In this document: piece after piece, positions 3,861-21,163 of the stretch
Layout: each line of letters begins with the position of its first letter
How positions within the stretch are numbered: the first letter of the stretch is position 1
The notes under the pieces: generated by a model
Seen by the model: the letters and a program-made list of their open reading frames with translations, nothing else
Told to the model about the DNA's origin: nothing
The model's database searches: none
Origin: Gammaproteobacteria bacterium
GTDB lineage: Bacteria; Pseudomonadota; Gammaproteobacteria; SZUA-229
Length of the DNA stretch: 64,000 bases
Reading direction: 5' to 3'
Assembly (NCBI GenBank): GCA_015488295.1
Contig: WFOC01000079.1
Location: 39,009 to 103,008, forward strand
Position numbers and translations under genes: made by a program

Positions 3861-3871
3861 ATGCATATAAA

Positions 3872-4015
3872 GATTAAAAGCATTTTTCACCACAGAGGCA
3901 CAGAGCACACAGAGTTTTTTTATCGTTAGCCGCGTCTGCGACGCATCTAACAATATATTATTTTTTCTCTGTGTGCTCTGTGCCTCTGTGGTGAATTACT
4001 TTTAAGCTTTTAATC
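3872..4015. repeat. Long palindromic element: perfect 28-bp inverted repeat (3887-3914 / 3967-3994) inside 10-bp outer arms
   Basis: TCACCACAGAGGCACAGAGCACACAGAG pairs perfectly with CTCTGTGTGCTCTGTGCCTCTGTGGTGA. Outer GATTAAAAGC/GCTTTTAATC arms overlap the apbE stop codon. The 52-nt loop contains a small GCGTCTGCGACGC hairpin. Confidence 0.8.
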
Positions 4016-4900: not shown

Positions 4901-4927
4901 AATCGTTAGAAAATTAAAAACATTATT

Positions 4928-5050
4928 TGTCCACAGATAAACACAAATAAACGCAAATATAAAAGCCGTATAACAAATACAGTAAAAAAATATTTTCTTT
5001 GCGTTTATTTGCGTTCATCTGTGGACGGTTAAACTTTTTAAGCTTTTATT
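4928..5050. repeat. Second long imperfect inverted-repeat element (arms 4928-4957 / 4998-5028) plus shared AAGCTTTTA flank
   Basis: TGTCCACAGATAAACACAAATAAACGCAAA pairs with TTTGCGTTTATTTGCGTTCATCTGTGGACGG with 2 mismatches. The flank CTTTTTAAGCTTTTATT resembles the 4001-4015 flank of the first element. Lies at the 3' end of the DUF971 gene. Confidence 0.75.
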
Positions 5051-5681: not shown

Positions 5682-6280
5682 TTAAAACTACATGCTCTCT
5701 GCTTGAATGATAACCGGGCCAGGCTATCAGGCCCGGCATAAAACAGCGCATATTCTACCTGTATTTTAAGCGCTGCAAGATTAATTCCCGTAAGGATAAT
5801 GATTCTCACTTAATATTGGCCGCCCGCCCTTGCAAGCCATTGATTTTTATAGACATAAAAACCATGCCACACTCATAAATAAAACTTATTGCAACCACAG
5901 CATTATTGTTTGGCGTTTGACCTCTTAGGGTCTAATCTGCACGCCTGAAAAGCGACTTGTTGTGTCGTTTTAATTGCTTTTACAGGTGCTTTGGGCATAC
6001 AATACGTGCCCCAACTTTAGCACCCTGGGCTCATTGTAATGATTCAACCGAATCCGGATGGGAACAGATAAAGCTGATATAACAGCAACTGTTATGTTGC
6101 TGGTAAACGAATTTTGATTCTAAACGGTAGCCTCTTCGGTAGTACCATTTTGGTAGTACAAGGGCGGCATCCAGAAAGATGAAAAAAGGTAGTTGTGAAA
6201 GAAATAGCCCTGCTGTCTTTTTCAACAAAACTATCGCAATTGCAATTGCATAAACTTTAAAACTCTAGGAGTTAATAATA

Positions 6281-6754
6281 ATGCCTACTTTTGTACGTAC
6301 TGAAAAGTGTGATGGATGTAAAGGCCAAGACCGTACAGCTTGCATGTACATCTGCCCACACGATTTAATGAAATTAGACAAAGATGGTTCTGACACAGGT
6401 CACGCCATGAAGTCTTACAACCAGGAACCAGAGCAATGCTGGGAATGTTATTCTTGCGTTAAAATCTGTCCTCAAAATGCTATCGAATGTCGTCACTATG
6501 CTGACGTTGTACCTCTGGGCGGCTCTGTACAGCCTTTACGTGGTACTGATTCAATTATGTGGACTATCAAGTTCCGTAACGGAAACATGAAGCGTTTCAA
6601 ATTCCCAATTCGCACCACTGCTGAAGGCTCTATCGATCCTTATGCTGGCAAACCAGAAGCTGACATGGCTAAGATCGAAGAGAACGGTTTCTTCAATCAC
6701 ATGGAACAGAACGGTTACCGTGCTGGTGATCCAAGCGAACTGATCTGTAAGTAA
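6281..6754 (+). CDS. aprB: Adenylylsulfate (APS) reductase beta subunit
   Basis: MPTFVRTEKCDGCKG...CMYICPHD ferredoxin-like N-terminus typical of AprB, immediately upstream of aprA. Confidence 0.9.
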   Translation: MPTFVRTEKCDGCKGQDRTACMYICPHDLMKLDKDGSDTGHAMKSYNQEPEQCWECYSCVKICPQNAIECRHYADVVPLGGSVQPLRGTDSIMWTIKFRNGNMKRFKFPIRTTAEGSIDPYAGKPEADMAKIEENGFFNHMEQNGYRAGDPSELICK

Positions 6755-6802
6755 TCGTATTACAATCAAATAAATAATTTTAGAATATTAGAGGATATAA
6801 AG

Positions 6803-8788
6803 ATGGCCGAATTTGGTAATCCAGATGTCGTCGAAGAAGAAGTAGACATTCTTCTTATCGGCGGTGGTATGGCTTGTTGTGGTACAGCGTTCGAACTTCC
6901 ACGTTGGATCGAAGCATCAGGCAAAGACATTTCTGTTAAATTAGTTGATAAAGCTGCAATGGACCGTTCAGGTGCTGTTGCTCAGGGTTTGTCTGCTATT
7001 AACACTTACATTGGTCCTGAACAGGATCCAGCTGACTACGCTCGTATGGTTTCTAACGACCTTATGGGTATTACTCGTGATGACCTCGCGTACGACCTGG
7101 GTCGCCACGTAGATGAGTCTGTTCACCTGTTTGAAGAATGGGGTCTGCCTATTTGGAAAACTGACGAGAACGGCGAGCGTTTCGACGGTTCTAAAGGCAT
7201 GACTTCACTGAAAGACGGTGGCAAGCCTGTACGTTCTGGTAAATGGCAAATCATGATTAATGGTGAGTCTTACAAATGGATTGTTGCTGAAGCTGCGAAA
7301 AAAGCTTTAGGTATCGACAATATCCAGGAACGTATTTTCATCGTTAAGCTGATCAACGACAAAAACGACCCTAGCAGAATTGCTGGCGCGGTTGGTTTCT
7401 CAACTCGTGAAGACAAGATCGTTATCTACAAAGCGAAAGCTATCCTGCTGGCTGCCGGTGGTTGTGTAAACATCTTCCGTCCACGTTCAGTTGGTGAAGG
7501 TACAGGTCGTGCATGGTACCCAGTATGGAACGCTGGTTCTACTTACTCAATGGCTGCTGAAGCAGGCGCTGAGCTGACTCTGATGGAAAACCGTTTCGTA
7601 CCGACTCGTTTCAAAGACGGTTACGGTCCTGTTGGCGCATGGTTCCTGCTGTTTAAAGCACAGGCTACTAACGCTTACGGCGAAGCTTACATGCAGAAAA
7701 ACAAAGAAATGCTGGATGACTACCCTCCATACGGTCAGGCTGCGGTTCCTGCTTCTTGTCTGCGTAACCACTTAATGCTGAAAGAGATGAAAGACGGTCA
7801 CGGTCCTATCTGGATGGATACTGTTACAGCTCTGGGCAACCTGCGCGAAACACTGTCTCCACGTGAAGTTAAGCACCTTGAAGCTGAAGCATGGGAAGAT
7901 TTCCTTGACATGTGTGTTGGCCAATGTGGTATCTGGGTTGGTGAAAACATTGAGCCAGAGAAGAAAAACTCTGAGTTAATGCCTACCGAACCGTACCTGC
8001 TGGGTTCTCACTCTGGTTGTTGTGGTATCTGGACTTCAGGTCCTACAGACGTAGGCGCGCCTACAACTGAAACTGAAGAAGGCGTACCTGAGCATCTGCC
8101 ACAGGGCTGGAACTGGGGCTACCGTGGTATGACCACAGTAAACGGTCTGTTCACAGCTGGTGACGGTGTTGGTGCTTCTGGCCACAAATTCTCTTCAGGC
8201 TCTCACGCTGAAGGTCGTATGTGTGCTAAATCAATGCTGAAGTACGTTTTAGACAATGAAGATTACAAACCAGAATTAGATACTTCTGTTGAAGATCTGG
8301 TTGCTGCAATCTATCAGCCTGTTCGTACTTACCTTGAGTTTAAAGACTACACAACAGCTATCGACGTTAACCCTAACTACATCACTCCTAAAATGCTGCA
8401 GTTCCGTCTGCAGAAAATCATGGACGAGTATGTAGCTGGTGTTGCAACTTACTACAACACTAACGCCGAAATGATGAAAGTTGCTGGTGAAAAACTGGAC
8501 GAACTGAAAATCGACGCTAAGAAGATGCGTGCTAAAGACCTTCACGAATTACTTCGTGCATGGGAAAACTATCACCGCATCCTGACAGCTGAAGCTCACT
8601 TGAAACACATCGAATTCCGTCAGGAATCTCGTTACCCTGGTTTCTACTACCGCACTGACAAGAACTTCGTTGATGAAGAAAACTGGCATTGCTTCGTAAA
8701 CTCTATTTACGATAAAGAGACTGGTAAGTGGACTTGCTTCAAACGTGCACACGTTGATTTGGTAGACAAGTCTAAACTGTTCAAATAA
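6803..8788 (+). CDS. aprA: Adenylylsulfate (APS) reductase alpha subunit (FAD)
   Basis: MAEFGNPDVVEEEVDILLIGGGMACCG FAD-binding N-terminus. 661 aa, typical AprA size. Confidence 0.95.
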   Translation: MAEFGNPDVVEEEVDILLIGGGMACCGTAFELPRWIEASGKDISVKLVDKAAMDRSGAVAQGLSAINTYIGPEQDPADYARMVSNDLMGITRDDLAYDLGRHVDESVHLFEEWGLPIWKTDENGERFDGSKGMTSLKDGGKPVRSGKWQIMINGESYKWIVAEAAKKALGIDNIQERIFIVKLINDKNDPSRIAGAVGFSTREDKIVIYKAKAILLAAGGCVNIFRPRSVGEGTGRAWYPVWNAGSTYSMAAEAGAELTLMENRFVPTRFKDGYGPVGAWFLLFKAQATNAYGEAYMQKNKEMLDDYPPYGQAAVPASCLRNHLMLKEMKDGHGPIWMDTVTALGNLRETLSPREVKHLEAEAWEDFLDMCVGQCGIWVGENIEPEKKNSELMPTEPYLLGSHSGCCGIWTSGPTDVGAPTTETEEGVPEHLPQGWNWGYRGMTTVNGLFTAGDGVGASGHKFSSGSHAEGRMCAKSMLKYVLDNEDYKPELDTSVEDLVAAIYQPVRTYLEFKDYTTAIDVNPNYITPKMLQFRLQKIMDEYVAGVATYYNTNAEMMKVAGEKLDELKIDAKKMRAKDLHELLRAWENYHRILTAEAHLKHIEFRQESRYPGFYYRTDKNFVDEENWHCFVNSIYDKETGKWTCFKRAHVDLVDKSKLFK

Positions 8789-8822
8789 GTCCCGACTTAT
8801 TAGATAGTTGAGTTACAGAAGT

Positions 8823-8850
8823 CCGGGCATCATTAGATGCCCGGATTTTT
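8823..8850 (+). terminator. Rho-independent terminator after aprA
   Basis: CCGGGCATCATTAGATGCCCGG hairpin plus ATTTTT. Confidence 0.7.
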
Positions 8851-9050
8851 CAATTAAGGGCACAACAATTGTCTTTAATTGAGAAATCATAAACATCTGA
8901 TAATTTTCAAAATACCCGTAGGCTGGGCCAGGCGCTTTTTGCCGTAACCCGACAACAAGGTAGCCTGTATTAACCTGCTAAATGCCGGGTTGCGACGAAA
9001 AACACCTGACCTAACCTACGAATAATATCTTCCATTGCCAAGAGTTACTT

Positions 9051-9962
9051 ATGAGCCAAGACGACACTTTCAAATTTGAACTGCCCCACTCAAGCCCAGT
9101 GGAACCTACCCGACTTGAACTGGACGACAAATTAAAATTTCGTTGCCACCGCGGCGTGTCCTGCTGGAACCGCTGTTGTTCACGTGCAGACGTAACGCTC
9201 GCGCCTTACGACATCCTGCGCATGAAGGATGCCCTCGGTATGGACACCACAGAATTCCTTAAACAACACACCGTTCCTTTCGAACTCGACATGCATAGCG
9301 TTCCCGGCTTAAAGCTGCGCACCGATGATGAAGGAGCCTGCCTGTTCATGGGCAAAGAAGGCTGCTCGGTTTATGACAACCGCCCCACTGCCTGCCGTTA
9401 TTACCCGTCCGGCCTGCTGTCAATGAAATCCATCAGCGAAGCCACTGACGAACGTCACTTCCTGCTGATCAAGGAAGACCACTGTAAAGGCCATGACGAA
9501 GACCAGATTCAAACCATCGGCGAATACCGCAAGGCACAGGGCGTGGAAGAATACGACGACCTCAACCACGAGTGGTACCAGATCATCCTGAAGAAAAAAT
9601 CCACCGGCCCCAGCATCGGCAAACCATCCGACATGAGCCTGCAGATGTTCTTCATGGCCAGCTACGACATGGACCGCTTCCGCCGCTTCGTAATGAGCGA
9701 TTCCTTCATCAAGATGTACGACCTGAGCGACGACGAATACGCCGAACTGGAAAAAGATGATATCGCACTGATGAAATTCGGTTTCAGATTAATGAAGCAG
9801 GTTTTCTTCGGTGAGCTAACCATCAAGGAACGTGAAGGTGCCTGGGAAGAGCGCATCAAGGAACGCAAGGAAATTCTTGAGTTCCGCAAGCAGGCGGAAA
9901 TTGCTGCACATCAGAAAAGAGAAGAAGAAGCACGCAACGCATCGATAGACGATAAAGAGTAA
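9051..9962 (+). CDS. YkgJ/UPF0153-family putative Fe-S (Cys-cluster) protein with K/E-rich C-terminal tail
   Basis: CHRGVSCWNRCC cluster plus ACLFMGKEGCSVYDNRPTACRYYP matches the CxxCxxCC zinc/iron-chelating domain family. The C-terminal 50 aa are highly charged. Confidence 0.7.
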   Translation: MSQDDTFKFELPHSSPVEPTRLELDDKLKFRCHRGVSCWNRCCSRADVTLAPYDILRMKDALGMDTTEFLKQHTVPFELDMHSVPGLKLRTDDEGACLFMGKEGCSVYDNRPTACRYYPSGLLSMKSISEATDERHFLLIKEDHCKGHDEDQIQTIGEYRKAQGVEEYDDLNHEWYQIILKKKSTGPSIGKPSDMSLQMFFMASYDMDRFRRFVMSDSFIKMYDLSDDEYAELEKDDIALMKFGFRLMKQVFFGELTIKEREGAWEERIKERKEILEFRKQAEIAAHQKREEEARNASIDDKE

Positions 9963-9967
9963 AAGAT

Positions 9968-10048
9968 AGTTGGCAGTCGTTAGTTTGCAGTTAGCAGCAA
10001 AAGCTGGAAACAAAAAAACTTTTAACTACTAACTGACGACTGCCAACT
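9968..10048. repeat. GTTGGCAG palindromic repeat element, copy A
   Basis: AGTTGGCAGTCGTTAGTT ... AACTAACTGACGACTGCCAACT inverted repeat followed by TTTT. Probable terminator between the ykgJ-like gene and the phosphoesterase gene. Confidence 0.6.
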
Positions 10049-10063
10049 TTTCAATAAAAAACT

Positions 10064-10591
10064 ATGACGAACAAAAACGTAACCGTCGGCATCCTGTCCG
10101 ACTCGCATGGCTACCTTGACCCGAGAGTCGCAGAAGTTGTCAACCAGTGTGACTATATCGTACACGCCGGCGACATTTTCAATGCACAGGTTTTAGCGCA
10201 GCTGAAGCCTGCGAAAAAGCTGGTCGCGGTTAGCGGCAATAACGATTACCCGGCCTTCTGGAAAGCGGAAGAAGCAGCTATCGTTAAAGCCTTACCCCCT
10301 ACCGCAAAACTACAACTGCCCGGCGGCACCATCTACGTCGAACACGGCCACCGTCTGGGCAACCACCCCGACCACAACGAACTGCGCCGCGACCACGCCG
10401 AAGCCAAACTGATCGTTTACGGTCATACCCATCACCGCATCATCGACCAGCAGGCCGAACCCTGGGTGGTAAATCCTGGCGCTTCAGGCAAGGTAAGAAC
10501 ACACGGCGGGCCTTCGTGTCTGGTGTTGCATGCCAGCGAAGAGGAATGGAAAATTGAGACGGTTCTGTTTGCAGATTCTGCTGCAGCTTAA
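10064..10591 (+). CDS. Metallophosphoesterase (YfcE/MJ0936-like calcineurin-type phosphoesterase)
   Basis: DSHG, GD, GNND, HGH and GHTHH metal-binding motifs in canonical order. Confidence 0.8.
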   Translation: MTNKNVTVGILSDSHGYLDPRVAEVVNQCDYIVHAGDIFNAQVLAQLKPAKKLVAVSGNNDYPAFWKAEEAAIVKALPPTAKLQLPGGTIYVEHGHRLGNHPDHNELRRDHAEAKLIVYGHTHHRIIDQQAEPWVVNPGASGKVRTHGGPSCLVLHASEEEWKIETVLFADSAAA

Positions 10592-10594
10592 CAA

Positions 10595-10682
10595 AAGTTG
10601 GCAGTTGGCAGTTGGCAAAAGTCTAAAAAAACAACCTTGGAACCGTCAAGTTTTTATACTGCAAACTGACGGCTGCCAACTT
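10595..10682. repeat. GTTGGCAG palindromic repeat element, copy B, with (GTTGGCA)x3 tandem
   Basis: AAGTTGGCAGTTGGCAGTTGGC ... GCAAACTGACGGCTGCCAACTT. The unit AGTTGGCAGYCGTYAGTTTGCAG is shared with copy A. Sits between convergent genes. Confidence 0.6.
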
Positions 10683-10686
10683 CAAA

Positions 10687-11421
10687 CTACGCTTTTATAT
10701 AAACCCAGCCCTTCTTCAAACGCTCGGGAATCAACTCTCTGGCAGCTCTATCTGTTGTCACACCATCCATTAGCACAATTTCAACCCCTTCTTTTTTATG
10801 CGCTTTATCGATAGAGCGCTGACAGGCAAAAACTGCAACATCCTCGTCATCAACCAGCTTTTTTATGCGCGCAAGATAAGGCGACACACCAGGGCGCAAG
10901 ACATTAATGCCAGCCTTGTTGGTCACAATATCCAGCTTTATAGGCTTGTCCGCTTTACGGTAACTCGCCAGTAAATTATCAGCCTCATCTAATGCCGCTT
11001 TAACAATCTGCTGATTATTGGAGTCGATGTGTAATATGATCCTGCGCTCTTTATGGTCGACAGTGACATGGTTGGCAACAAACTGAAAAGTATTCTCAGC
11101 CGAAACTGCATTCACCGAATTAGGACTGTATTCATAAGTTGACCAGCCCAGCAACACACCCACAACCAGCGTCACAGAAGCGGCCACAGCCCTGTTTACA
11201 AATGAACCTGAACGTCGTCTGTCGGGACTCCTGTGGCGCGATGGCGGCACTTCACTGTAGGCATAGCCAATCAGCTCGCGTACCGCTTTTAACTGGCACA
11301 CCTGTTCACGCAAATCTTTGTTATCCAGCAAAGCTTCGTGTATCTCATTCATTTCATCGGTATCGAGCTGTTCATCGATGAATAGATTTAATTTATCTTC
11401 TGTAATGTCCTTGATGTTCAT
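10687..11421 (-). CDS. Anti-sigma factor with a single TM helix and a periplasmic DsrE/YchN-like domain
   Basis: Translationally coupled to the ECF sigma gene, sharing base 11421. TM segment AVAASVTLVVGVLLGW. The C-terminal 140 aa are paralogous to the two secreted DsrE-like proteins and carry the conserved Cys in FACQRS. Confidence 0.7.
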   Translation of the reverse strand: MNIKDITEDKLNLFIDEQLDTDEMNEIHEALLDNKDLREQVCQLKAVRELIGYAYSEVPPSRHRSPDRRRSGSFVNRAVAASVTLVVGVLLGWSTYEYSPNSVNAVSAENTFQFVANHVTVDHKERRIILHIDSNNQQIVKAALDEADNLLASYRKADKPIKLDIVTNKAGINVLRPGVSPYLARIKKLVDDEDVAVFACQRSIDKAHKKEGVEIVLMDGVTTDRAARELIPERLKKGWVYIKA

Positions 11422-11969
11422 TATTTAACCCTCCGCAATTTGAACTCGGATAAATCATCCGAACCAAATTCAAGTAACTGCTGTTTCAAGTTTTTGCGAG
11501 CTCTGAACAAACGACTCATGACAGTACCGATTGGCACTTCTGTAATCTCTGCAATCTGCGCATAACTAAAACCGGCAAAATCAGCCAGTGTAACGACTTC
11601 ACGTAATGGTAGCGGCAACTGCTCAACAGAAGCCCTGACGCGTTTGACAATTTGTGATTGTTGATAGTTCTCAGAATGGCCGGCCTGATCTTCGTCATGC
11701 ATCTCAACAAACTCGACATTGCGTCCTTTCACTCGCAGATAGTCCTGCCAGCAATTGTACAAAATCCGGTATAACCAGCTATCCATGGTCTCCACATCGC
11801 GCAGCCTGGATGCATTTTTTATCGCTTTGTAGATCGTCTCCTGCACCAGGTCATCAGCCAGCGCCGGATCGTGACACCATGTGTACGCAATGCGATACAA
11901 CTTGTTTCGCCGGGCGGCAAACTCCGATTTTAATGAGAACGCGGCCACCAGATCTTTAACTATTTTCAT
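11421..11969 (-). CDS. ECF-type RNA polymerase sigma factor
   Basis: Region 2 LVQETIYKAIKN...WLYRILYNCWQDYLR and region 4 FSYAQIAEITEVPIGTVMSRLFRARKNL. Start taken at MKIVKDL. Confidence 0.85.
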   Translation of the reverse strand: MKIVKDLVAAFSLKSEFAARRNKLYRIAYTWCHDPALADDLVQETIYKAIKNASRLRDVETMDSWLYRILYNCWQDYLRVKGRNVEFVEMHDEDQAGHSENYQQSQIVKRVRASVEQLPLPLREVVTLADFAGFSYAQIAEITEVPIGTVMSRLFRARKNLKQQLLEFGSDDLSEFKLRRVK

Positions 11970-12080
11970 AAAAACTCCCAATAACATAATAGAGACGCAG
12001 CAACAGGAAAAATATTCTCAAAAATAATTGTGAATATTTTACGCCCCCGCCCCGTCTCTTAGCTGTCGGAATTTATCAAG

Positions 12081-12614
12081 ATGTATGCAGAAAAACAAAT
12101 GATTCAGAAAATTTACCTGATAGTGCTCACTTTATTCACGGTTCAGAGCAACATCGCTCATGCCAACCTCGATCTCCCGCTTGAAGGAATCGATGGCAGA
12201 CAGCACAAGGTTTCAGAATATCTCAACCAGGGCAAATGGGTGGTTTTGAATATTTTGGGCACCCGCTGCCCACCCTGCCGTGAAGAAATGCCTGAACTGG
12301 TACATTTTCACGACGAACAGAATGGAGCCATGGTGGTAGCCATCGCCATTGACTTTCCCAGCTACGGTTACGCAAAACAGGGCGAAGTCGCAAGCTTTGC
12401 AGACGACTACCTCATTGACTTCCCCGTCCTCCTGAGCGACTCGAGCATCACAGAAAAGCTGGGGCTGGGCACACTGGAAGGCCTGCCGACAACATACATA
12501 TTCAGCCCGGAAGGCAAGGTCGCTGGCATGCAGGTCGGCGGCATCAATCAGAACATACTGAAGAACTTTATAAAAAAATCAAAGCTGCAAGTTCCCGGCA
12601 GCGAAAACCAATAA
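12081..12614 (+). CDS. TlpA/ResA-like periplasmic thiol:disulfide oxidoreductase (thioredoxin fold, CPPC)
   Basis: Signal peptide, then GKWVVLNILGTRCPPCREEMPEL thioredoxin-like CxxC motif. Confidence 0.75.
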   Translation: MYAEKQMIQKIYLIVLTLFTVQSNIAHANLDLPLEGIDGRQHKVSEYLNQGKWVVLNILGTRCPPCREEMPELVHFHDEQNGAMVVAIAIDFPSYGYAKQGEVASFADDYLIDFPVLLSDSSITEKLGLGTLEGLPTTYIFSPEGKVAGMQVGGINQNILKNFIKKSKLQVPGSENQ

Positions 12615-12659
12615 TAACCGGGATCAAACCTGAAAACTTAAACCAAAAAGAGGAAAAAA

Positions 12660-13148
12660 ATGAAAACACTACAAACAAAACTACTGGCCGCTTTTTTGAT
12701 GAGCATGTGCCTGTTGATGATGAACGCTGCCAATGCAGGCGACCGTTACGGAAAACAAAAAGTGGTCTATCACATCAATTATGACAACCCCAAAAAACAG
12801 TCCGGTGCACTGCGCAACATCCAGAATCACATCAACGCTGTCGGTGCCGAAAATCTTGACCTGAGAGTTGTATTACACGGCCACGGTCTGTCCTTACTGC
12901 TGGACCCGGATTCATTAGCCAAGCTGAAAAAATTCAAGCATGCCAATGCAAATGAAACCATGACAGCCAAAATCGACAATCTGAAAAACCAGGGTATCAA
13001 ATTCAACGTCTGCGCTAACACCGTTCGCGGCAGAAAAGTTGACATCGACTCTGACCTGCACAATGTTGACAAGAGCGACATCGTTCCTAGCGGCGTTGCC
13101 GAACTGGCTCATCTGCAATCATTAGGGTACGCCTACGTTAAACCATAA
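12660..13148 (+). CDS. Secreted DsrE/DsrF-like (YchN-fold) family protein, paralog 1
   Basis: Signal peptide MKTLQTKLLAAFLMSMCLLMMNAANA. KVVYHINYDNP...ALRNIQNHI...LRVVLHGHGL...FNVCANT matches the DsrE-family topology with the conserved Cys. Confidence 0.65.
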   Translation: MKTLQTKLLAAFLMSMCLLMMNAANAGDRYGKQKVVYHINYDNPKKQSGALRNIQNHINAVGAENLDLRVVLHGHGLSLLLDPDSLAKLKKFKHANANETMTAKIDNLKNQGIKFNVCANTVRGRKVDIDSDLHNVDKSDIVPSGVAELAHLQSLGYAYVKP

Positions 13149-13343
13149 GACTGCATATTCATGTCATTACGTGACTCTCACAGCTTGCTAAAAGCAGATA
13201 TTTTATCTGCCTCCTGCCGAGCGCCACGTGATGACAGTTTTTAAAAACATGTGAATAAATTATTACTCACGCCGTCTTGTAGTAATGGAATAGCAAAACC
13301 AAAACCATTATTTTAAAAATAAAAACCTAAATAGGAGATATTC

Positions 13344-13784
13344 ATGAAAAAATTAACTTCCATCTTTTTACTATTGATAGCAATGACGGGAAGCTATCAG
13401 ATACAGGCTGGTGAAGATGACAAGCCTTTTGCAGAAGAAAGAATCGTACTTCAAATCAGTGATCCCAACCCTTTCAAACAAACACTGGTACTCAATGTCG
13501 CAACCAACCTGATCAAATACTACGGCCAGGACAAAGTTGATATTGAAATCGTCGCCTTCGGCCCCGGCCTGCGTCTGATGTTCAAGGACAACGTAAACCA
13601 CAAGCGTATTAAAGGCCTGTCAAACAGCGGTGTAAAATTTGCAGCATGTAAAAACACCATTGCAGGCATGACCAAAAAACTAGGTCACGCACCTGAATTA
13701 CATGCCAGCGCAGTACCAGTCTCTGCCGGCGTAGTACGCATTATCGAATTAGAAAATCAGGGTTTCAAACTGATCAAACCATAA
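13344..13784 (+). CDS. Secreted DsrE/DsrF-like (YchN-fold) family protein, paralog 2
   Basis: Signal peptide. RIVLQISDPNP...LVLNVATNL...IEIVAFGPGL...FAACKNT. C-terminal GFKLIKP resembles paralog 1 GYAYVKP. Confidence 0.65.
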   Translation: MKKLTSIFLLLIAMTGSYQIQAGEDDKPFAEERIVLQISDPNPFKQTLVLNVATNLIKYYGQDKVDIEIVAFGPGLRLMFKDNVNHKRIKGLSNSGVKFAACKNTIAGMTKKLGHAPELHASAVPVSAGVVRIIELENQGFKLIKP

Positions 13785-13838
13785 TAAAAATCATACCTAA
13801 CAAAATATAAAAGCTTTTTCCTTTCGGGAGGATGAACA

Positions 13839-15200
13839 ATGAATTTAAAAAGAAACATGTTATTAAAAACAGCTGGAGTTGTGCTGTTATCAGGCGCTTC
13901 AACTGTACATTCCGCAAACTGGCTGGCACTACAGGGCACAGAACCTGACGGTCAGTCGGCACGTGCCAGAGTATGGGGTTTTGTACAACCTGAATATCAG
14001 TCAATGAGCGGCAGCAAAGTTGAAGCCGGCGCATGGAAAGGCAGCGAAGCTGTTTTTAACCAGATCGGTCCAGACCTGAAAACCAGCAGCTCATTCAATA
14101 TACGACGCGCCCGTATCGGTGTACGTGGCACCGGTTTTCCACTAGACAACAAAGTCAACTATTTCTTCCTGGCTGAATTTGGTAACAACGGCATCACTCG
14201 CCCGGGCAACGGAACAGGTAGTGCAAAAGTTACTGATGCCAGCGTAACACTGAGCCACATTCCCGGTGCCCGCATTCGTGTTGGTCAATTCAAAACACCC
14301 GGCGCGGAAGAAGGCCTGCAAGCTATTCACGTTTTTGACTACATCAACTTTACCGGCGTAACCAACGGCCTGTTACTGGAACGTTTCTTTGATAGTGATG
14401 GGTCAGACACCTTCTTCACACCAAGCAGCAACTCCGGTGCCGGCGGCAACAAGAATGGCGCAAATGGCCCTGTCGGTGCCTTCCGTGACATTGGTGTCCA
14501 GGTATTTGATACCTTCAAAGTCAATGACTGGGAACTCAGTTACGCTGCCATGCTTGGTAACGGAAACGGCATAACCCGTGGTGACAATGATGACAACAAG
14601 GAAACTTATCTGTACGCATCTGCAGAACTGGTCTTTGGTGGTAAAGGTGGTCGTCGCCAGGGCTGGAAAATGTTCGTATGGAACCAGGATGGCAAACGCA
14701 CAATTAAAGCAACACCCGCTCAGGTCGAAGGCGAATTTGATCGCACACGTAGCGGTCTGGGCACAACCTTCCGCAAAGGAAAATACCGAGCAGCCGCTGA
14801 ATACATTACAGCTGACGGCATGATCTTTAACGGCACAGATGGTGGTGCAGTACCTGGCTCAACTTCTGCTGGCCCGGGTGTGACAGCTTCTTTCAACATG
14901 GAAACAGTCGGCGAAGCAAATGGTTATTACGCCCACTTTGGTTACATGATTATGCCTAACCTCGAACTGGATATTCGCTATGACGTTTATAACCGTATGA
15001 CTGATGTTGCAGCAAAAGAAAGAAAGTTCACAACAACAACACTTGGTGCACAGTACTTCTTTAACAAGAAGAGCCGTTTCACTTTAAACTACGAACTACG
15101 CGATGCCGAAGCACCTAACCTTGCTTCAACACACAATGCCAACAAGATATTGGGTGAAATCGACAATCGTATTTCAGCACAATTGCTGATCATCTTCTAA
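13839..15200 (+). CDS. Outer-membrane beta-barrel porin (phosphate-selective porin O/P-like)
   Basis: Signal peptide, alternating amphipathic beta-strand pattern, and a C-terminal aromatic residue (...SAQLLIIF). Confidence 0.6.
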   Translation: MNLKRNMLLKTAGVVLLSGASTVHSANWLALQGTEPDGQSARARVWGFVQPEYQSMSGSKVEAGAWKGSEAVFNQIGPDLKTSSSFNIRRARIGVRGTGFPLDNKVNYFFLAEFGNNGITRPGNGTGSAKVTDASVTLSHIPGARIRVGQFKTPGAEEGLQAIHVFDYINFTGVTNGLLLERFFDSDGSDTFFTPSSNSGAGGNKNGANGPVGAFRDIGVQVFDTFKVNDWELSYAAMLGNGNGITRGDNDDNKETYLYASAELVFGGKGGRRQGWKMFVWNQDGKRTIKATPAQVEGEFDRTRSGLGTTFRKGKYRAAAEYITADGMIFNGTDGGAVPGSTSAGPGVTASFNMETVGEANGYYAHFGYMIMPNLELDIRYDVYNRMTDVAAKERKFTTTTLGAQYFFNKKSRFTLNYELRDAEAPNLASTHNANKILGEIDNRISAQLLIIF

Positions 15201-15280
15201 GGAATATTTTTCCTGGATAGATTTAAAAAATAAAGGTAAATCCTGCGTTAATCATCATGCTATGTGATACACGCTTTGAG

Positions 15281-15312
15281 GGGGTCGAAAGATCCCCTCT
15301 TTTTTTGTTTAC
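15281..15312 (+). terminator. Rho-independent terminator after porin gene
   Basis: GAGGGGGTCGAAAGATCCCCTC hairpin followed by T7. Confidence 0.7.
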
Positions 15313-15363
15313 GCATTTCGCATCACGATATATATTCATAAATTCAAACAAGGACTAATCAAC

Positions 15364-15831
15364 ATGAACAGCAAAACACTAAAAATAATTTTCAGCCTCA
15401 TAACACTCAGCTCTGGCTGCACTACTGTTATCGCAAGCGAAACAGATGGCATAATAAAAACGAAAAGCGCACACAGCGTTACAGAAACAATAAACAGACT
15501 GGAAGCCGTATTAAACAAAAAAGGCATGACCATATTCAAACGCGTCAACCACACTGCTGGCGCAAACAAGGCCGGCCTGCAACTGCGCCCCACCGAATTG
15601 CTGATATTCGGCAACCCGAAAGTCGGCACACCATTGATGCAATGCTCACAAACCGCAGCACTGGACCTTCCACAAAAAGCACTGGCATACAAGGATAAAA
15701 AGGGACAGGTATGGCTGATCTACAATGACCCGGCCTACATGGCAGAAAGACACCATCTTCACGGCTGCGAGAAAGCAGTTCAGAAAGTCACCAATGCACT
15801 GGCTAGATTTGCCAGTGCAGCTACAAAATAA
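15364..15831 (+). CDS. DUF302 domain lipoprotein
   Basis: Lipobox LSSGC. ETINRLEAVLNKKGMTIFKRVNH...LRPTELLIFGNPKVGTPLM...DLPQKALAYKDKKGQVWLIYNDPAYM matches the DUF302 pattern. Confidence 0.7.
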   Translation: MNSKTLKIIFSLITLSSGCTTVIASETDGIIKTKSAHSVTETINRLEAVLNKKGMTIFKRVNHTAGANKAGLQLRPTELLIFGNPKVGTPLMQCSQTAALDLPQKALAYKDKKGQVWLIYNDPAYMAERHHLHGCEKAVQKVTNALARFASAATK

Positions 15832-16017
15832 AAAAGTTTCAAGTTATATGCTTTAAGTTATAAAAAACTCAAACCTAAAACATGTAACTTAATACCCTCA
15901 TCCCGAATTTCCAGACAGACAGGCAAAACCGGCATTGACTCAAAACCCCTCCACCATGCTAGTATATGAAATCTTTTCCAGAAACTAATAAACTCTAACT
16001 GCAAAGGGGATTTATTC

Positions 16018-16404
16018 ATGAAATCATTCAAGCGCACACTGGCTCTGATCCTGTCAATTTCATTATTCAGCATTTCTTTTGGCCATGCTCATGCCGCCAT
16101 AGTCACAAACGACCAAATCATACATCAAGCCCAACAGGAAATAGATAAAACAACTCTGCTAACAATGATCAATCACTTAGATGTTCAGGAACAATTACTC
16201 AGCATGGGTGTCTCCAGCACCGACATAAAAGAGCGCATCAAGCAGATGACACAGGAAGAAATTGCACAACTCAACTCGCAACTTGATAATTTACCCGCCG
16301 GTGGCGATATACTTGGTATCGCCGTTCTCATATTTATTGTTTTTGTCGTTACAGATGTCATTGGCGCAACAGATCTATTCCCGTTCATTCACCCCATCAA
16401 ATAA
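16018..16404 (+). CDS. PA2779-family small protein (signal peptide, GG motif, C-terminal hydrophobic segment)
   Basis: 128-aa protein. It resembles the PA2779 family and sits upstream of a PA2778-type peptidase. Confidence 0.55.
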   Translation: MKSFKRTLALILSISLFSISFGHAHAAIVTNDQIIHQAQQEIDKTTLLTMINHLDVQEQLLSMGVSSTDIKERIKQMTQEEIAQLNSQLDNLPAGGDILGIAVLIFIVFVVTDVIGATDLFPFIHPIK

Positions 16405-16410
16405 TAATGA

Positions 16411-17379
16411 ATGAAAACACTGATACTGCCTATATGCCTGCTAGTCTTAAGCGGCTGCGCATCAACACCACAAAGCAGTCACATAAAAGCTAATGGCCCG
16501 GGCTTCCTGCCATCAGCTATCGAATTGACAGACACACCTTTTTTTCCACAGACACAACATCAATGTGGGCCTGCGGCATTGGCAACCGTGCTACAGGCTC
16601 ACAACATAAAAGCCACACCAGAAACCCTGTCCAGCCAGGTCTACATTCCTGAACGTCAGGGCAGCCTGCAGATAGAAATGGCTGTCGCTGCACGTCGACA
16701 CGGGATGTTGCCATATCCTCTGGACACCCAAATGACCGCACTTTTCGCAGAAATAGCTGCCGGTAACCCGGTGCTGGTTTTACAGAACCTCAGTTTTGAA
16801 TGGTATCCAAAATGGCACTACGCAGTGGTCGTTGGATATGATTATGACAATCAGGAAATCACCCTTCGATCCGGTACAAGCAAACGCTGGGTTACACCTT
16901 TTGAAGTATTCGAACGAACATGGCAACGTGCTGATTTCTGGGCACTGGTCATCGTACCTGCAGGTGTGGTGCCCGCAACAGCAGAACCACTGCGTTATCT
17001 AAAAACCGCCTATGCCTTCGAAGAAACAGGTCACTATAAACTTGCTCTCAAAACATACCGGTCAGCTAGCAAACGCTGGCCTGAAATCAGCATCACCTGG
17101 ATAACACTGGGAAACATGGCTTATAAAAATCATTATTGGCTTGAGGCCATTAATGCATTTAATACCGCTTTAAACATTGACCCAAAATCAATCACCAGTT
17201 GGAATAATCTGGCTTATACACTACATGCCTATGGCTGTCAGAAACCAGCCATAAAGGCGCTCCAATGTGGTTTAAACATTACGCCAACTGATAAAAACCT
17301 ATTAAATTCATGGAAAGAGTTACATAACAACCCTGCTAACAATCAAATAAACTGCCCAAACATTCAATGTTACAAATAA
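16411..17379 (+). CDS. PA2778-family C39-like cysteine peptidase with C-terminal TPR repeats
   Basis: QCGPAALATVLQAH papain-like/C39 catalytic Cys motif. The C-terminal half carries TPR-like AYKNHYWLEAINAFNTALNIDP repeats. Confidence 0.7.
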   Translation: MKTLILPICLLVLSGCASTPQSSHIKANGPGFLPSAIELTDTPFFPQTQHQCGPAALATVLQAHNIKATPETLSSQVYIPERQGSLQIEMAVAARRHGMLPYPLDTQMTALFAEIAAGNPVLVLQNLSFEWYPKWHYAVVVGYDYDNQEITLRSGTSKRWVTPFEVFERTWQRADFWALVIVPAGVVPATAEPLRYLKTAYAFEETGHYKLALKTYRSASKRWPEISITWITLGNMAYKNHYWLEAINAFNTALNIDPKSITSWNNLAYTLHAYGCQKPAIKALQCGLNITPTDKNLLNSWKELHNNPANNQINCPNIQCYK

Positions 17380-17504
17380 ACTTTTTTACTAAACACCCTG
17401 ACATCCTGTTACTAAATTCAACACCAGACCACTAGCATTATTTCTAATGCATCCTGTCAACGATTAATCATCATCCGCCTGCTAAATTATTATAAAATGA
17501 GCAA

Positions 17505-18611
17505 ATGAACCTCCCCCAAATTGATGACTACCGCTCTATTTTATTAAACGACACTCCGTTACTGGATGTCCGTGCTCCGGTAGAATTTGAGCAGGGCGCT
17601 TTCCCCTTTACAGAAAACCTCCCGCTGATCAACAATCAGGAACGCGAGGCTATCGGCATTTGCTATAAGAATCAGGGACAGGACGAAGCCATAAAGCTTG
17701 GCCATAAACTGGTACAGGGCGAAATAAAATCACAGCGTGTAAATGGCTGGCAGGATTTTTTTGAACGCTATCCTCAGGGCGTGCTTTACTGCTTTCGTGG
17801 CGGCATGCGTTCAAAAATATCACAACAGTGGATCTATGAACAAACAGGGAAAATCTATCCACGGATAAAGGGCGGCTACAAAGCCATGCGCCGTTTTCTG
17901 ATTGATGAACTAGAAGCATCAACCCGGCAGATCAGTCCTGTCATGCTGGGTGGCCGCACCGGCATCGGCAAAACACTTTTGTTACATGAATTAAAACAGC
18001 AGGTCGACCTCGAAGGTATCTATCACCATCGTGGCTCGGTGTTTGGCAAGCACGTCACGCCACAACCGTCACAGATCGATATTGAAAATACACTGTCTAT
18101 CAAACTACTAAAACTTCTGGATAAAAAACATTCACGAATTGTTTTTGAAGATGAAGGCACCAATATCGGCTCACGACTGATTCCCGATGTGTTATACCAA
18201 AAAATGAAACAATCGCCTCTCATTCTGCTTGAAGCAAACACCGATGAACGGGTCGATATAACATTTCAGGAATACATCATCGAGTCATTGTCCGAGCACC
18301 AGAAACATCTCGGTGAAGAACAGGGGTTTAAATCATGGTGCGAACAGTTACAACTATCCATCGACAAAATACAGCGCCGTCTGGGCGGCGTTCGATACAA
18401 AGAACTTAAAGCTCTGCTTACCGATGCCATCCAGCAGCAAATAACAAGCGGCGATAACGAGCACCACAAACAGTGGATAAAAACGTTATTAGTCGATTAT
18501 TACGACCCGATGTATGATTTTCAGACACAAAAAAAACAGGATCGTGTTGTCTTTAAAGGGCAGAAAAATGAGGTCCTTTCCTATTTGAAAGAGCAATATC
18601 AAATAACTTGA
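17505..18611 (+). CDS. selU: tRNA 2-selenouridine/geranyl-2-thiouridine synthase
   Basis: N-terminal rhodanese domain (LLDVRAPVEFEQGAFP...CFRGGMRS) plus P-loop GGRTGIGKT. Confidence 0.85.
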   Translation: MNLPQIDDYRSILLNDTPLLDVRAPVEFEQGAFPFTENLPLINNQEREAIGICYKNQGQDEAIKLGHKLVQGEIKSQRVNGWQDFFERYPQGVLYCFRGGMRSKISQQWIYEQTGKIYPRIKGGYKAMRRFLIDELEASTRQISPVMLGGRTGIGKTLLLHELKQQVDLEGIYHHRGSVFGKHVTPQPSQIDIENTLSIKLLKLLDKKHSRIVFEDEGTNIGSRLIPDVLYQKMKQSPLILLEANTDERVDITFQEYIIESLSEHQKHLGEEQGFKSWCEQLQLSIDKIQRRLGGVRYKELKALLTDAIQQQITSGDNEHHKQWIKTLLVDYYDPMYDFQTQKKQDRVVFKGQKNEVLSYLKEQYQIT

Positions 18612-18670: not shown

Positions 18671-19495
18671 GTGTTTCATATTCGTCAACCCGCTGTCGCC
18701 GGCGCTTTTTATCCGGCACAAAAACAACTGCTGGCAGAGGACATCGATGCCTTGCTGGAAGCTGCCCGCCTTAGCCGGCACACCAGCACGGATGAGGCTG
18801 AACCTTTACCCAAGGCCATCATCGTTCCCCATGCCGGCTACATCTACTCGGGCGAAGTCGCCGCGGCTGCTTACAGCCTGTTAGCCGCCGCCCACAACAT
18901 TATCAAACGCGTTATTTTATTGGGCCCGGTGCACCGTGTACCGGTACGTGGCCTGGCGCTTCCCGGCTTCGAAGCTTTCGCCACACCACTGGGTGAAGTC
19001 CAGATCGATTACACCGCCGTGGCAACCATTGAAAGCCTGCCACAGGTAGTCATCAGCCCGGAAGCTCACCTTCCCGAGCACTCCCTTGAAGTGCAGCTGC
19101 CTTTTCTGCAATCGGTGCTCGACGATTTCAAAATCGTACCACTGGCCATTGGTGATGCCTCCCCGGCCGAAGTTGCCGAAGTGCTGGAAACATTGTGGGG
19201 CGGAAAAGAAACGCTGATCGTGGTCAGTTCAGATCTGTCACATTTTTTTCCTTACCAGACAGCGCAGCTGCTGGACTCACAAACAGTAAAAGACATTCTC
19301 AGCCTGGCACACACCCTGAATCATGAGCAGGCCTGCGGCGGCACCACGATCAACGGCCTGTTGCTGGCGGCCAAACACCGTCATTTGCAACCCCATCTGC
19401 TCGACCTGCGCAACTCCGGTGACACCGCTGGCGATAAAAGCCGCGTCGTAGGTTATGCCTCATTCGCATTTACCGAAGAGACAGACAGTGCCTGA
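18671..19495 (+). CDS. amrB: AmmeMemoRadiSam system protein B (MEMO1-like)
   Basis: GTG start. AGAFYPA and IIVPHAGYIYSGEVAAAAY motifs of the Memo family. Confidence 0.8.
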   Translation: MFHIRQPAVAGAFYPAQKQLLAEDIDALLEAARLSRHTSTDEAEPLPKAIIVPHAGYIYSGEVAAAAYSLLAAAHNIIKRVILLGPVHRVPVRGLALPGFEAFATPLGEVQIDYTAVATIESLPQVVISPEAHLPEHSLEVQLPFLQSVLDDFKIVPLAIGDASPAEVAEVLETLWGGKETLIVVSSDLSHFFPYQTAQLLDSQTVKDILSLAHTLNHEQACGGTTINGLLLAAKHRHLQPHLLDLRNSGDTAGDKSRVVGYASFAFTEETDSA

Positions 19496-20078
19496 TAATA
19501 AAGGAAAAATATTATTATCAATCGCGCGTGCGGCCATCACCGAAACATTAGGGCTGCCGCATACACCTGTCGAAGCGCTTGCGCAAAACAGGCCCTGGCT
19601 TCAGGAAAAAGCCGCCTGTTTTGTCACGCTCATGCAAAACGGTCAGTTACGTGGTTGCATCGGCACCCTGGAAGCACACCGCTCTTTACTGGAAGATGTA
19701 ATACACAATGCCAACGCAGCCGCTTTTTATGACAGCCGTTTTTCACCCCTGACTCACGATGAGCTGGATACCACTGAAATCGAAATTTCATTATTGTCTG
19801 ATATGCAGCCACTGATTTTTTCAGGCGAACAGGAGGCACTCACACAGCTTCGCCCCGGCATTGATGGCGTGCTGCTGGAATCTGGTCAGCACCGTGGCAC
19901 ATTTCTGCCCCAGGTATGGCAGCAGTTACCTGATAAAAAAGATTTTATGGCGCATCTGAAAAACAAAGCCGGGCTACCCTCAGACTTCTGGTCAGATGAA
20001 ATCAAGCTTTATCGCTACACCGTAACAAAATGGAAGGAAACTGATTTTCCCGCATCAAACAAGGCAGAAACACGATGA
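19455..20078 (+). CDS. amrA: AmmeMemoRadiSam system protein A (AMMECR1 domain)
   Basis: AACFVTLMQNGQLRGCIGTLEA AMMECR1 core. The true start may be the GTG at 19488, giving a short overlap with amrB. Confidence 0.8.
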   Translation: MPHSHLPKRQTVPDNKGKILLSIARAAITETLGLPHTPVEALAQNRPWLQEKAACFVTLMQNGQLRGCIGTLEAHRSLLEDVIHNANAAAFYDSRFSPLTHDELDTTEIEISLLSDMQPLIFSGEQEALTQLRPGIDGVLLESGQHRGTFLPQVWQQLPDKKDFMAHLKNKAGLPSDFWSDEIKLYRYTVTKWKETDFPASNKAETR

Positions 20079-21163
20079 TACAAGGCTCAAACTACCGCGG
20101 GCGTTACTGGCACATGCTCGAAGACGGGCGCATGCAGTGCGACCTGTGCCCACGTGACTGCAAGTTGCACGAAGGCCAGCGCGGAGCCTGCTTTGTACGT
20201 AAACGTGAAGGCGATCAAATGTTGCTGACCACTTACGGACGCTCTTCCGGTTTTTGCATCGACCCCATCGAAAAAAAACCACTCAACCATTTTTACCCCG
20301 GCAGCAGCGTGCTTTCATTTGGCACTGCCGGTTGTAACCTGGCCTGTAAATTCTGCCAGAACTGGGACATCAGCAAATCCCGGGATATGGATCGCCTGAT
20401 GGATCAGGCATCACCCGAAGCCATCGCCATCGCGGCTGAAAAACATAATTGCAAAAGCGTGGCCTTCACCTACAACGACCCGGTTATCTTCGCCGAATAC
20501 GCCATGGACACCGCCGATGCCTGCCATGCACACGGCATCAAAACTGTTGCCGTCACCGCTGCTTATATACACGAAGAAGCACGACGTGATTTCTTTGCAA
20601 AAATCGATGCCGCCAATGTTGATTTAAAAGCCTTCAGCGACGAGTTTTATTACAAACTCACCGGCGCACACCTGCAACCAGTGCTGGACACCCTGATCTA
20701 TCTCAAGCACAAAACCGATGTCTGGTTCGAGATAACCACCCTGCTCATCCCCGGAAAAAATGATTCGGATGAAGAACTAACCGCGATGTGTCAATGGATA
20801 AAAAAGGAACTGGGGCCGGATATCCCCCTGCACTTCACCGCCTTTCATCCTGATCACAAAATGCCGGACATCCCCGCTACCCCGCCCGCAACACTGATTC
20901 GCGCCCGCGACATCGCGCTCAAACAGGGCCTGCATTATATTTACACCGGCAACGTGCACAACATCGAAGGCGACACCACTTTCTGCCCAGGCTGCCACAG
21001 CCCATTGATTGTGCGAGACTGGTACCAGATCAAACAATACCGTCTGACCGACGATGCACATTGCCCGGACTGCGGTTTCCATCTGGCGGGAAGGTTTGAT
21101 AAAAAAGCGGGAGATTTTGGTGCAAGACGCATCCCGATTGCCATTCAGGATAGCCGCGTTTAA
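20075..21163 (+). CDS. amrS: AmmeMemoRadiSam system radical SAM enzyme
   Basis: N-terminal Cys cluster CDLCPRDC...GACFVRK plus radical SAM CNLACKFCQNW. Confidence 0.85.
   Translation: MIQGSNYRGRYWHMLEDGRMQCDLCPRDCKLHEGQRGACFVRKREGDQMLLTTYGRSSGFCIDPIEKKPLNHFYPGSSVLSFGTAGCNLACKFCQNWDISKSRDMDRLMDQASPEAIAIAAEKHNCKSVAFTYNDPVIFAEYAMDTADACHAHGIKTVAVTAAYIHEEARRDFFAKIDAANVDLKAFSDEFYYKLTGAHLQPVLDTLIYLKHKTDVWFEITTLLIPGKNDSDEELTAMCQWIKKELGPDIPLHFTAFHPDHKMPDIPATPPATLIRARDIALKQGLHYIYTGNVHNIEGDTTFCPGCHSPLIVRDWYQIKQYRLTDDAHCPDCGFHLAGRFDKKAGDFGARRIPIAIQDSRV

Follow-up and report, generated by a model that had tools for sequence, protein, structure and literature searches.

Why should a bacterium export proteins with the fold of a sulfur relay, when, to our knowledge, the characterised DsrE-fold sulfur carriers (DsrEFH, TusBCD, DsrE2/E3) are all cytoplasmic? 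The question is raised by two neighbouring genes, here called P1 and P2, in a 64,000-nucleotide stretch of DNA (the window; contig WFOC01000079.1, positions 39,009 to 103,008) from a gammaproteobacterium of the SZUA-229 lineage. A preliminary description of window positions 12,660 to 13,784 took their products for two tandem secreted paralogs of DsrE/YchN fold, possibly forming an extracytoplasmic persulfide shuttle. According to sequence comparisons and structure models, the locus encodes three extracytoplasmic domains of the MTH1491 type, and one of them is predicted to be the sensor part of an anti-sigma factor. We suggest, with a probability of roughly 45%, that P1 and P2 are periplasmic cysteine-based carriers or scavengers of reactive sulfur, which would be recycled by a TlpA-like protein and induced by an extracytoplasmic function (ECF) sigma factor via the homologous sensor domain. 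The two genes are as follows.

12660-13148, plus strand: P1, predicted secreted MTH1491-type DsrE-like protein of 162 residues (signal peptide 12660-12737; Cys118 at 13011-13013; tail GYAYVKP).
13344-13784, plus strand: P2, predicted secreted MTH1491-type DsrE-like paralog of 146 residues (signal peptide 13344-13409; Cys102 at 13647-13649; tail GFKLIKP).

Both open reading frames were confirmed at these coordinates, and Shine-Dalgarno-like sequences stand ahead of P1 and P2 (gaggaaaaaaATG and taggagatattcATG, respectively). Database searches returned 5162 matches for P1 and 3142 for P2; identities and names were taken from the best 120 of each. These best matches are 76–99% identical to P1 and 82–99% identical to P2, come mainly from Thiotrichaceae and metagenome-assembled genomes of Gammaproteobacteria, and are called, where they bear a name, “DsrE family protein” or “intracellular sulfur oxidation DsrE/DsrF family protein”. 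Orthologs of P1 (62–86% identical) occur in 361 species-representative genomes, the hosts including Thiothrix, Thiolinea, Cocleimonas flava, Ca. Thiodiazotropha, lucinid symbionts, Arenicellales and some Burkholderiaceae. This sequence conservation argues that P1 and P2 are real genes under strong purifying selection. They are paralogs of each other, with 29% identity in BLASTP (E 2e-16) and a value of 98.5% in the hhalign comparison of the two families.

The assignment of the fold rests on several comparisons. P1 exceeds the gathering score of the DsrE/DsrF-like family PF02635 (43.9 bits vs 22.7, E 3e-11), and the profile search thereby led to the expected fold rather than to an unrelated periplasmic family. 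P2 gave no match in Pfam or NCBIfam, and none of P1, P2 and the anti-sigma protein is represented by an NCBIfam model; since neither P2 nor the anti-sigma domain reaches the PF02635 threshold, both were placed through paralogy and fold. The AlphaFold model of P2 (predicted local distance difference test score, pLDDT, 84, with the core above 90) agrees with MTH1491 (1l1s) at a TM-score of 0.89 and a root-mean-square deviation (rmsd) of 1.9 Å, and with ST0148 (2pd2) at a TM-score of 0.87. The AlphaFold2 models of P2 and of the anti-sigma C-terminal domain show a three-layer alpha/beta architecture with a parallel sheet and match 1l1s, 2pd2, 3mc3, 2qs7, 3pnx and 2hy5, the last of these (DsrEFH) appearing in Foldseek only at E about 4e-3 to 6e-3.

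The nearest solved structure to P1 alone is MTH1491 (E 2.5e-8), followed by ST0148. A family profile in which 20 diverse representatives were combined with P1, P2 and the anti-sigma domain reached 1l1s in the PDB with E 3.8e-23 (over residues 4–113 of 113) and 2pd2 with E 1.9e-12, and the Joint Genome Institute name COG1416 is given to members of the P1, P2 and anti-sigma families alike. By sequence and model, P1 and P2 are therefore best placed in the MTH1491/ST0148 (COG1416) branch of the DsrE-like fold and not among DsrE, TusD or YchN proper. The DsrE-like fold proposed earlier thus stands; a kinship to DsrE, TusD or YchN by sequence does not.

Each mature protein has a single cysteine, C118 in P1 and C102 in P2, which is invariant in both ortholog sets and had been remarked on earlier. 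In the P2 model, C102 lies at the end of the strand 98–102 and at the start of the helix 103–113, so that the residue is predicted to occupy the strand-end/helix-start place used by TusD and DsrE. The sole local hhalign match to E. coli TusD, which is not statistically significant, pairs the family cysteine with TusD Cys78. The cysteine is conserved in 116 of the 126 aligned family representatives, and in P1, P2 and the anti-sigma domain it is followed by basic residues (CANTVRGRK, CKNTIAGMTKK, CQRSIDKAHKK). The shared tail G[YF]x[YL][VI]KP, which had also been noticed, is found family-wide (MTH1491, GWAYIRP; the anti-sigma domain, GWVYIKA) and forms the last beta-strand; it is therefore not a special sorting tag. 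In three exported members of the family, P0374, P0390 and P0399, Ser or Asp stands in place of the cysteine (FLVSGLT, FFVDHHT and FLVSART), which recalls the non-catalytic subunits of the DsrF/TusC type.

Export was judged by sequence rules. The P1 leader (residues 1–26) comprises an n-region MKTLQTK, a hydrophobic core of 14 residues and a site A-N-A/G; the P2 leader (residues 1–22) comprises MKK, a core of 11 residues and a site I-Q-A/G. The Ala at position -1 is invariant in the alignments of P1 and P2 orthologs, and the rest of the leader is more variable than the mature part. The leader represents an N-terminal extension in comparison with the cytoplasmic MTH1491, which begins at strand 1, and in the AlphaFold model of P2 it is a detached helix of low confidence. 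These features suggest that P1 and P2 are exported by the Sec pathway, and together with the paralogy and the fold they bear out the earlier picture of two tandem secreted DsrE-fold proteins.

To what extent is such a location unusual? The mature P1 domain alone was used for searching 1.84 billion representatives at 50% identity, and it gave 800 clusters at E<=1e-3, including 227 at E<=1e-10. An N-terminal signal, lipobox or anchor is present in 88 of the 101 whole-domain representatives listed, 9 start at the domain, and 4 are ambiguous. Extracytoplasmic location thus appears from the sequences to be the rule within the MTH1491/COG1416 branch. The periplasmic position of P1 and P2, previously described as unusual, is so in comparison with the characterised cytoplasmic relays but not within the branch to which the proteins belong.

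The third domain of this type is found in the product of a gene pair divergent from tlpA. The surrounding features are listed below in window coordinates.

10687-11421, minus strand: anti-sigma-like membrane protein of 244 residues, its start overlapped by the stop of the sigma gene.
11421-11987, minus strand: ECF sigma factor gene (Pfam Sigma70_r2 and r4_2; NCBIfam sigma70-ECF 81 bits vs a cut-off of 42.9).
11993-12019, minus strand: ECF-type promoter-like motif GAGAATA-N15-CGTCT before the sigma/anti-sigma operon, a copy with one mismatch.
12030-12057, plus strand: ECF-type promoter-like motif GTGAATA-N16-CGTCT before tlpA-P1, an exact match to the pattern.
12081-12614, plus strand: predicted secreted TlpA/ResA-like thioredoxin-fold protein with CPPC (Pfam AhpC-TSA and Redoxin; signal peptide AHA/N).
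13162-13243, plus strand: long hairpin (outer stem of 12 bp) and then a U-run, 3' of P1 (RNA folding with shuffles).
13251-13277, plus strand: ECF-type promoter-like motif GTGAATA-N15-CGTCT before P2-porin, the second exact match in the window.
13839-15200, plus strand: outer-membrane porin, weak kin of the anion-selective OprO/P family (Pfam Porin_O_P E 8.5e-10, partial; NCBIfam ExtI E 5e-6, below cut-off).
15278-15309, plus strand: intrinsic-terminator-like hairpin and T-run, 3' of the porin gene.
15364-15831, plus strand: exported DUF302 protein (Pfam DUF302 E 4e-20).

The anti-sigma protein consists of an N-terminal cytoplasmic part with three helices, an Arg-rich stretch, a transmembrane segment at about residues 78–95 (11137-11190) and a C-terminal MTH1491/DsrE-like domain (residues 121–244, 10690-11061) with a conserved Cys200 (10822-10824) in the motif AC.RS. 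The DsrE-like domain is thus C-terminal to a transmembrane helix whose cytoplasmic flank is rich in Arg. Its model has a pLDDT of about 80–90, and Foldseek relates it to 1l1s with E 9e-8, a TM-score of 0.88, an rmsd of 2.1 Å and 25% identity. Similarity to P2 in BLAST is weak (E 3e-4), and when the profile of the anti-sigma family was compared with those of P1 and P2, the probabilities were 0.5% and 27%; because this comparison is hampered by shallow alignments (Neff about 1.5), the domain was assigned by structure prediction. A separate fusion with a zf-HC2 anti-sigma domain occurs in Nitrospirota (P0448). In the literature, we found no description of an MTH1491/DsrE-like periplasmic sensor domain on an anti-sigma factor.

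The gene pair shows the features of an ECF module: of the sigma70 regions the sigma factor contains just 2 and 4, a membrane anti-sigma factor is encoded next to it in the same orientation, and a promoter motif of the ECF type lies ahead. Translation of the sigma factor probably starts at the ATG at 11969, behind a GGGAG ribosome-binding site, rather than at the listed position 11987, which lies just 6 nt from the promoter-like -10 element.

What connects this module to P1 and P2 is the promoter-like motif. The pattern GTGAATA-N13-17-CGTCT has exactly 2 matches in the window against 0.02 expected, and they lie before tlpA-P1 and before P2. All three sites, including the one-mismatch copy, are positionally conserved among related loci despite differing spacers: the copy at the sigma gene is kept in place in L008, L010, L012, L013, L014, L017, L018, L020 and L021, and the motif upstream of P2 in L003, L004, L006, L008, L010, L011, L013 and L017. 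In L009 and L046, which are devoid of tlpA, the motif is situated directly ahead of P1. In distant loci (type C), the sigma factor (35–47% identical), the anti-sigma factor (21–27%) and P1 are encoded on one strand, and GAATA-N15/16-CGTC precedes the sigma gene in 7 of 8 cases and P1 as well in 2. The presence of the motif ahead of the sigma/anti-sigma operon implies autoregulation. We suppose that the adjacent ECF sigma factor would govern an envelope regulon with P1 and P2 as its chief products.

The sequence suggests three likely transcription units, namely sigma/anti-sigma, tlpA-P1 and P2-porin, the porin gene starting 54 nt past P2. The hairpin at 13162-13243 is probably a terminator or attenuator between P1 and P2: the region 13146-13345 folds with -45.9 kcal/mol (z -4.3), and none of the 200 shuffles was as good. 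No Rfam family was detected in 9000-18000, and the scan for sigma-70 promoters remained at the background level. The DUF302 gene probably forms its own transcription unit, since a terminator lies upstream of it.

The CPPC protein which adjoins P1, as had been noted before, is a secreted member of the thioredoxin fold. Its CPPC motif is kept in 16 of 16 orthologs, and AhpC-TSA and Redoxin score above the Pfam cut-offs. As all the NCBIfam equivalogs ResA, StoA, TlpA and DsbE remain below their cut-offs, this protein is the ortholog of no named member.

Which genes accompany P1 in other genomes? Clustering of the neighbour genes over 76 P1 loci revealed secreted thioredoxin-fold CxxC proteins in 32 loci, ECF sigma factors in 25, LuxR-type response regulators in 17, porins in 15, kinases of the TtrS architecture (Phosphonate-bd + HisKA + HATPase_c) and LysE-like exporters in 14 each, SoxH-related metallohydrolases in 12, and DUF302 proteins in 10. 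Among the CxxC proteins, two non-orthologous kinds can be told apart, about 25% identical to each other: one has CPPC and is encoded upstream of P1, the other has C[EQ][IV]C and is encoded downstream, and all have signal peptides. The porin follows P2 in all 17 loci with enough sequence. In another lineage (L027, positions 3431-9697, and about 14 similar loci), the gene order is TtrS-like kinase, LuxR-type regulator, P1, the C[EQ][IV]C protein and a SoxH-related protein of the metallo-beta-lactamase fold; a LysE-like exporter and a NUDIX hydrolase are often next. Neither the match of the kinase to TtrS (NCBIfam E 1e-94) nor that of the regulator to TtrR (E 1e-46) reaches the curated cut-off. 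Tetrathionate or thiosulfate is the signal sensed by kinases of the TtrS type with PhnD-like domains (PMC5408782), and DUF302 genes are located inside the sox clusters of sulfur oxidisers without SoxCD (PMC5037610).

Among the hosts of P1, sulfur oxidisers predominate (Thiotrichaceae, Thiothrix, Thiolinea, Cocleimonas, Ca. Thiodiazotropha, lucinid symbionts, Sedimenticolaceae and Chromatiaceae). Sat (2571-3800) and AprB/AprA (6281-8788) of the sulfite-oxidation pathway via adenosine 5'-phosphosulfate are encoded in the window itself, as is a periplasmic nitrate reductase operon napAGHBC (30173-35854), which indicates that the host oxidises sulfur and respires nitrate. The NapA model begins at residue 48 of the listed reading frame, whose start is therefore probably too far upstream.

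Some other genes of the window deserve mention. The strand opposite to Sat/AprBA carries ApbE (4010-4900) and, at 5046-5681, an unusual protein in which a GBBH-like_N (DUF971) domain is fused to a MoaD/ThiS-type sulfur-carrier domain. A CxxCxxCC protein (YkgJ-like, putatively Zn/Fe-chelating) and a YfcE-like metallophosphoesterase (9051-10591) show conserved synteny with the anti-sigma gene among almost all close relatives. We considered these two upstream genes, together with AprBA and Sat, as possible parts of the system and rejected them, because their synteny is restricted to the close clade and missing from distant P1 contexts, so that it reflects the lineage. Directly 3' of DUF302, a pair comprising a PA2779 family protein (DUF6627, 128 residues, secreted) and a PA2778 family protein (a C39-like cysteine peptidase with tetratricopeptide repeats) occupies 16018-17379; it goes with the locus in L009 only. 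The gene mnmH/SelU (17505-18611; NCBIfam E 2e-153, no Pfam match) has no selD evident nearby. A selenium link through mnmH was rejected as context, since none of the 80 related loci has this gene. A complete AmmeMemoRadiSam system (18671-21163) includes a Memo-like B protein, an AMMECR1-like A protein and a radical SAM enzyme, for which the NCBIfam models are hypothetical equivalogs only.

How might the parts of the locus work together? We suggest that reactive sulfur in the periplasm (polysulfide or sulfane sulfur of another kind, or else an oxyanion able to thiosulfonate, for example tetrathionate) would modify the cysteine in the sensor domain of the anti-sigma factor, and that the sigma factor, being freed by this modification, would transcribe its own operon, tlpA-P1 and P2-porin. 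P1 and P2 may then accept the sulfur group on their cysteines as persulfide or S-thiosulfonate and act as carriers or sinks, and the secreted CPPC TlpA-like reductase would restore their free thiols. The anion-type porin could pass the sulfur anion across the outer membrane. In other lineages, a TtrS-like two-component system may switch P1 on instead of the ECF pathway. The ligand, the chemistry of the cysteine, the flow of electrons from the TlpA-like protein and the way of sensing are our suppositions. The extracytoplasmic persulfide shuttle proposed at the outset is plausible in this context, which includes two TlpA-like forms, TtrS-like sensors, SoxH-related and DUF302 proteins and sulfur-oxidising hosts; its specific connection to sulfur globules or Sox is not borne out.

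Several facts weigh against the sulfur carrier or scavenger role. The unit contains no sox, dsr, sgp, rhodanese, TusA or DsbD/CcdA genes; the promoters are pattern matches; and the matches to TtrS, TtrR, SoxH, ExtI and TlpA are all sub-threshold for the curated families. The family profile retrieved no DsrEFH, TusBCD or YchN chain from the PDB at E<10, and hhalign against E. coli TusD gave a non-significant probability of 0.25%, so that fold and context are the basis from which the sulfur chemistry is extrapolated. The cysteine is missing from about 8% of the family representatives. Many P1 orthologs stand alone amid housekeeping genes (in Cocleimonas flava, Burkholderiaceae and Arenicellales), and part of the hosts are not established sulfur oxidisers. 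The literature offered no biochemical function for any MTH1491-type protein and nothing on exported ones; searches on periplasmic DsrE or COG1416 yielded only work on cytoplasmic DsrE or unrelated matches (for example, DsRed).

Some of these facts would be accommodated by a general defence of periplasmic thiols against oxidants, where sulfur plays no special role: the single-Cys P1 and P2 would be sacrificial or redox-buffering proteins that undergo sulfenylation or enter mixed disulfides under stress by peroxide, hypochlorite or disulfides, the TlpA-like protein would serve as their reductant, and the anti-sigma cysteine would sense oxidation. ECF sigma/anti-sigma pairs commonly answer envelope or oxidative stress, and such a function agrees with this usual role, with one cysteine per exported domain, with the CxxC thioredoxin-fold partner in 32 of 76 loci and with the many P1 genes standing alone in ordinary neighbourhoods. 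We nevertheless consider it unlikely, since it leaves unexplained the kinases of the TtrS architecture, the SoxH-related hydrolases, DUF302, the anion-type porin and the concentration in sulfur oxidisers, and it would recruit a DsrE-like fold for which we know of no peroxidase-like activity. Handling of metals or metalloids (Cu, Hg, Se, Te) is the most doubtful of the alternatives. Here the cysteine and nearby His residues of P1 would bind a soft metal or selenium, the TlpA-like protein would act as in the assembly of copper centres, and the porin would admit selenite or tellurite. TlpA-type proteins do reduce Cu-site cysteines in other systems, and H38, H57 and H73 are conserved in P1; these His residues, however, are not conserved in P2, the anti-sigma domain or MTH1491. 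The porin weakly matches ExtI from a selenite/tellurite operon and the TlpA-like protein weakly matches a SelL-related model, but both matches are far under the cut-offs. The neighbouring mnmH at 17505-18611 encodes a tRNA 2-selenouridine synthase, but its proximity is not conserved, and no cop, mer or czc resistance genes are present nearby.

The similarity between the sensor and the outputs also permits a mainly regulatory explanation, which we find quite improbable: P1 and/or P2 would oligomerise with the anti-sigma domain in a feedback like that of RseB or CpxP, and the TlpA-like protein and the porin would be the effectors. MTH1491-type proteins crystallise as trimers, and DsrEFH and TusBCD are hetero-oligomers of paralogs; both precedents fit such a role, as do the common fold and C-terminal strand of the sensor and the outputs and the co-occurrence of sigma, anti-sigma with the MTH1491-like domain and P1 in 25 loci of two architectures. 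P1 orthologs, however, keep 65–86% identity from one order to another and mostly occur without a DsrE-domain anti-sigma factor (51 of 76 loci), and the prevalence of well-conserved P1 without this partner argues for an autonomous function; the invariant cysteine is also left unexplained. A further reading, which we rate as rather unlikely, is that the locus represents the extracytoplasmic counterpart of a sulfur relay, in which MTH1491-type proteins would carry sulfane or thiosulfonate on their cysteines between the anion porin, the TlpA-like reductase and the inner membrane, the anti-sigma copy being a “dummy substrate” that senses the load. Handling and movement of reactive or stored sulfur in the periplasm of sulfur oxidisers are poorly understood, and under this reading the widespread family (hundreds of clusters at 50% identity, mostly exported) would supply candidates for the missing periplasmic carriers that mobilise polysulfide or stored sulfur. 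For such studies, our analysis offers a large exported branch of the fold, its partners (two kinds of secreted CxxC reductase, a SoxH-related hydrolase, an anion-type porin and DUF302) and two kinds of dedicated regulators, the ECF sigma factor with a same-domain anti-sigma factor and the TtrS-type kinases. Should the sulfur reading fail, an undocumented class of ECF anti-sigma sensor domain and its regulon would still be left.

How does this locus compare with known systems? As far as we found, the family is known yet uncharacterised, and its exported, ECF-wired arrangement with a homologous sensor is undescribed. P1 and P2 are most similar to the archaeal COG1416 proteins MTH1491 (1l1s) and ST0148 (2pd2), with which they share sequence similarity over the full length, the fold (TM-scores 0.87–0.89 and rmsd about 2 Å for the models of P2 and the anti-sigma domain), the C-x-N-T/S motif after strand 3 and the strand G[WYF]xY[IV][KR]P. 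MTH1491 and ST0148, however, have no leader and start at strand 1, which makes them cytoplasmic, whereas P1 and P2 have predicted Sec signal peptides; P1 additionally carries an insertion of about 15 residues (DPDSLAKLKKFKHANA), and the third copy is fused here to an anti-sigma factor. With DsrEFH and TusBCD, the similarity concerns the class of the alpha/beta fold, the topological position of the cysteine at the end of strand 3 and the start of the next helix, and the joint encoding of paralogs. These systems differ from P1 and P2 in their cytoplasmic location, in the lack of significant sequence similarity and in their E-F-H or B-C-D triplets with a TusA, TusE or DsrC partner. In the locus studied, two free paralogs are split by a hairpin and a putative separate promoter, the unit contains no TusA, DsrC or TusE genes, and the partner is a secreted thioredoxin-fold CxxC protein.

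A chemical precedent is given by DsrE3A/TusA of Metallosphaera cuprina, where a DsrE-family protein can bear Cys-S-thiosulfonate derived from tetrathionate (PMC4175335), in keeping with the TtrS-like regulators located by P1 orthologs. That system works in the cytoplasm, has links to TusA and Hdr, and falls into a different branch of the DsrE family.

A functional analogy may be seen with SoxS/SoxW, the periplasmic thioredoxin that keeps the carrier cysteine of SoxYZ (on SoxY) functional. In both arrangements, a sulfur carrier acting through a cysteine in the periplasm would be served by a secreted reductase of the thioredoxin fold, and SoxH-related and DUF302 proteins recur near P1; nevertheless, the SoxYZ fold is unrelated to the DsrE-like fold, and P1 loci have no sox genes. 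The regulatory part resembles systems of the RpoE-RseA type in its sigma2 and sigma4 regions, the co-transcribed single-pass membrane anti-sigma factor and the putative autoregulatory promoter, whose -35 element contains AAT and whose -10 element is of the CGTC type. It differs from them in the sensor domain, which is here MTH1491/DsrE-like and paralogous to the products of the putative regulon itself.

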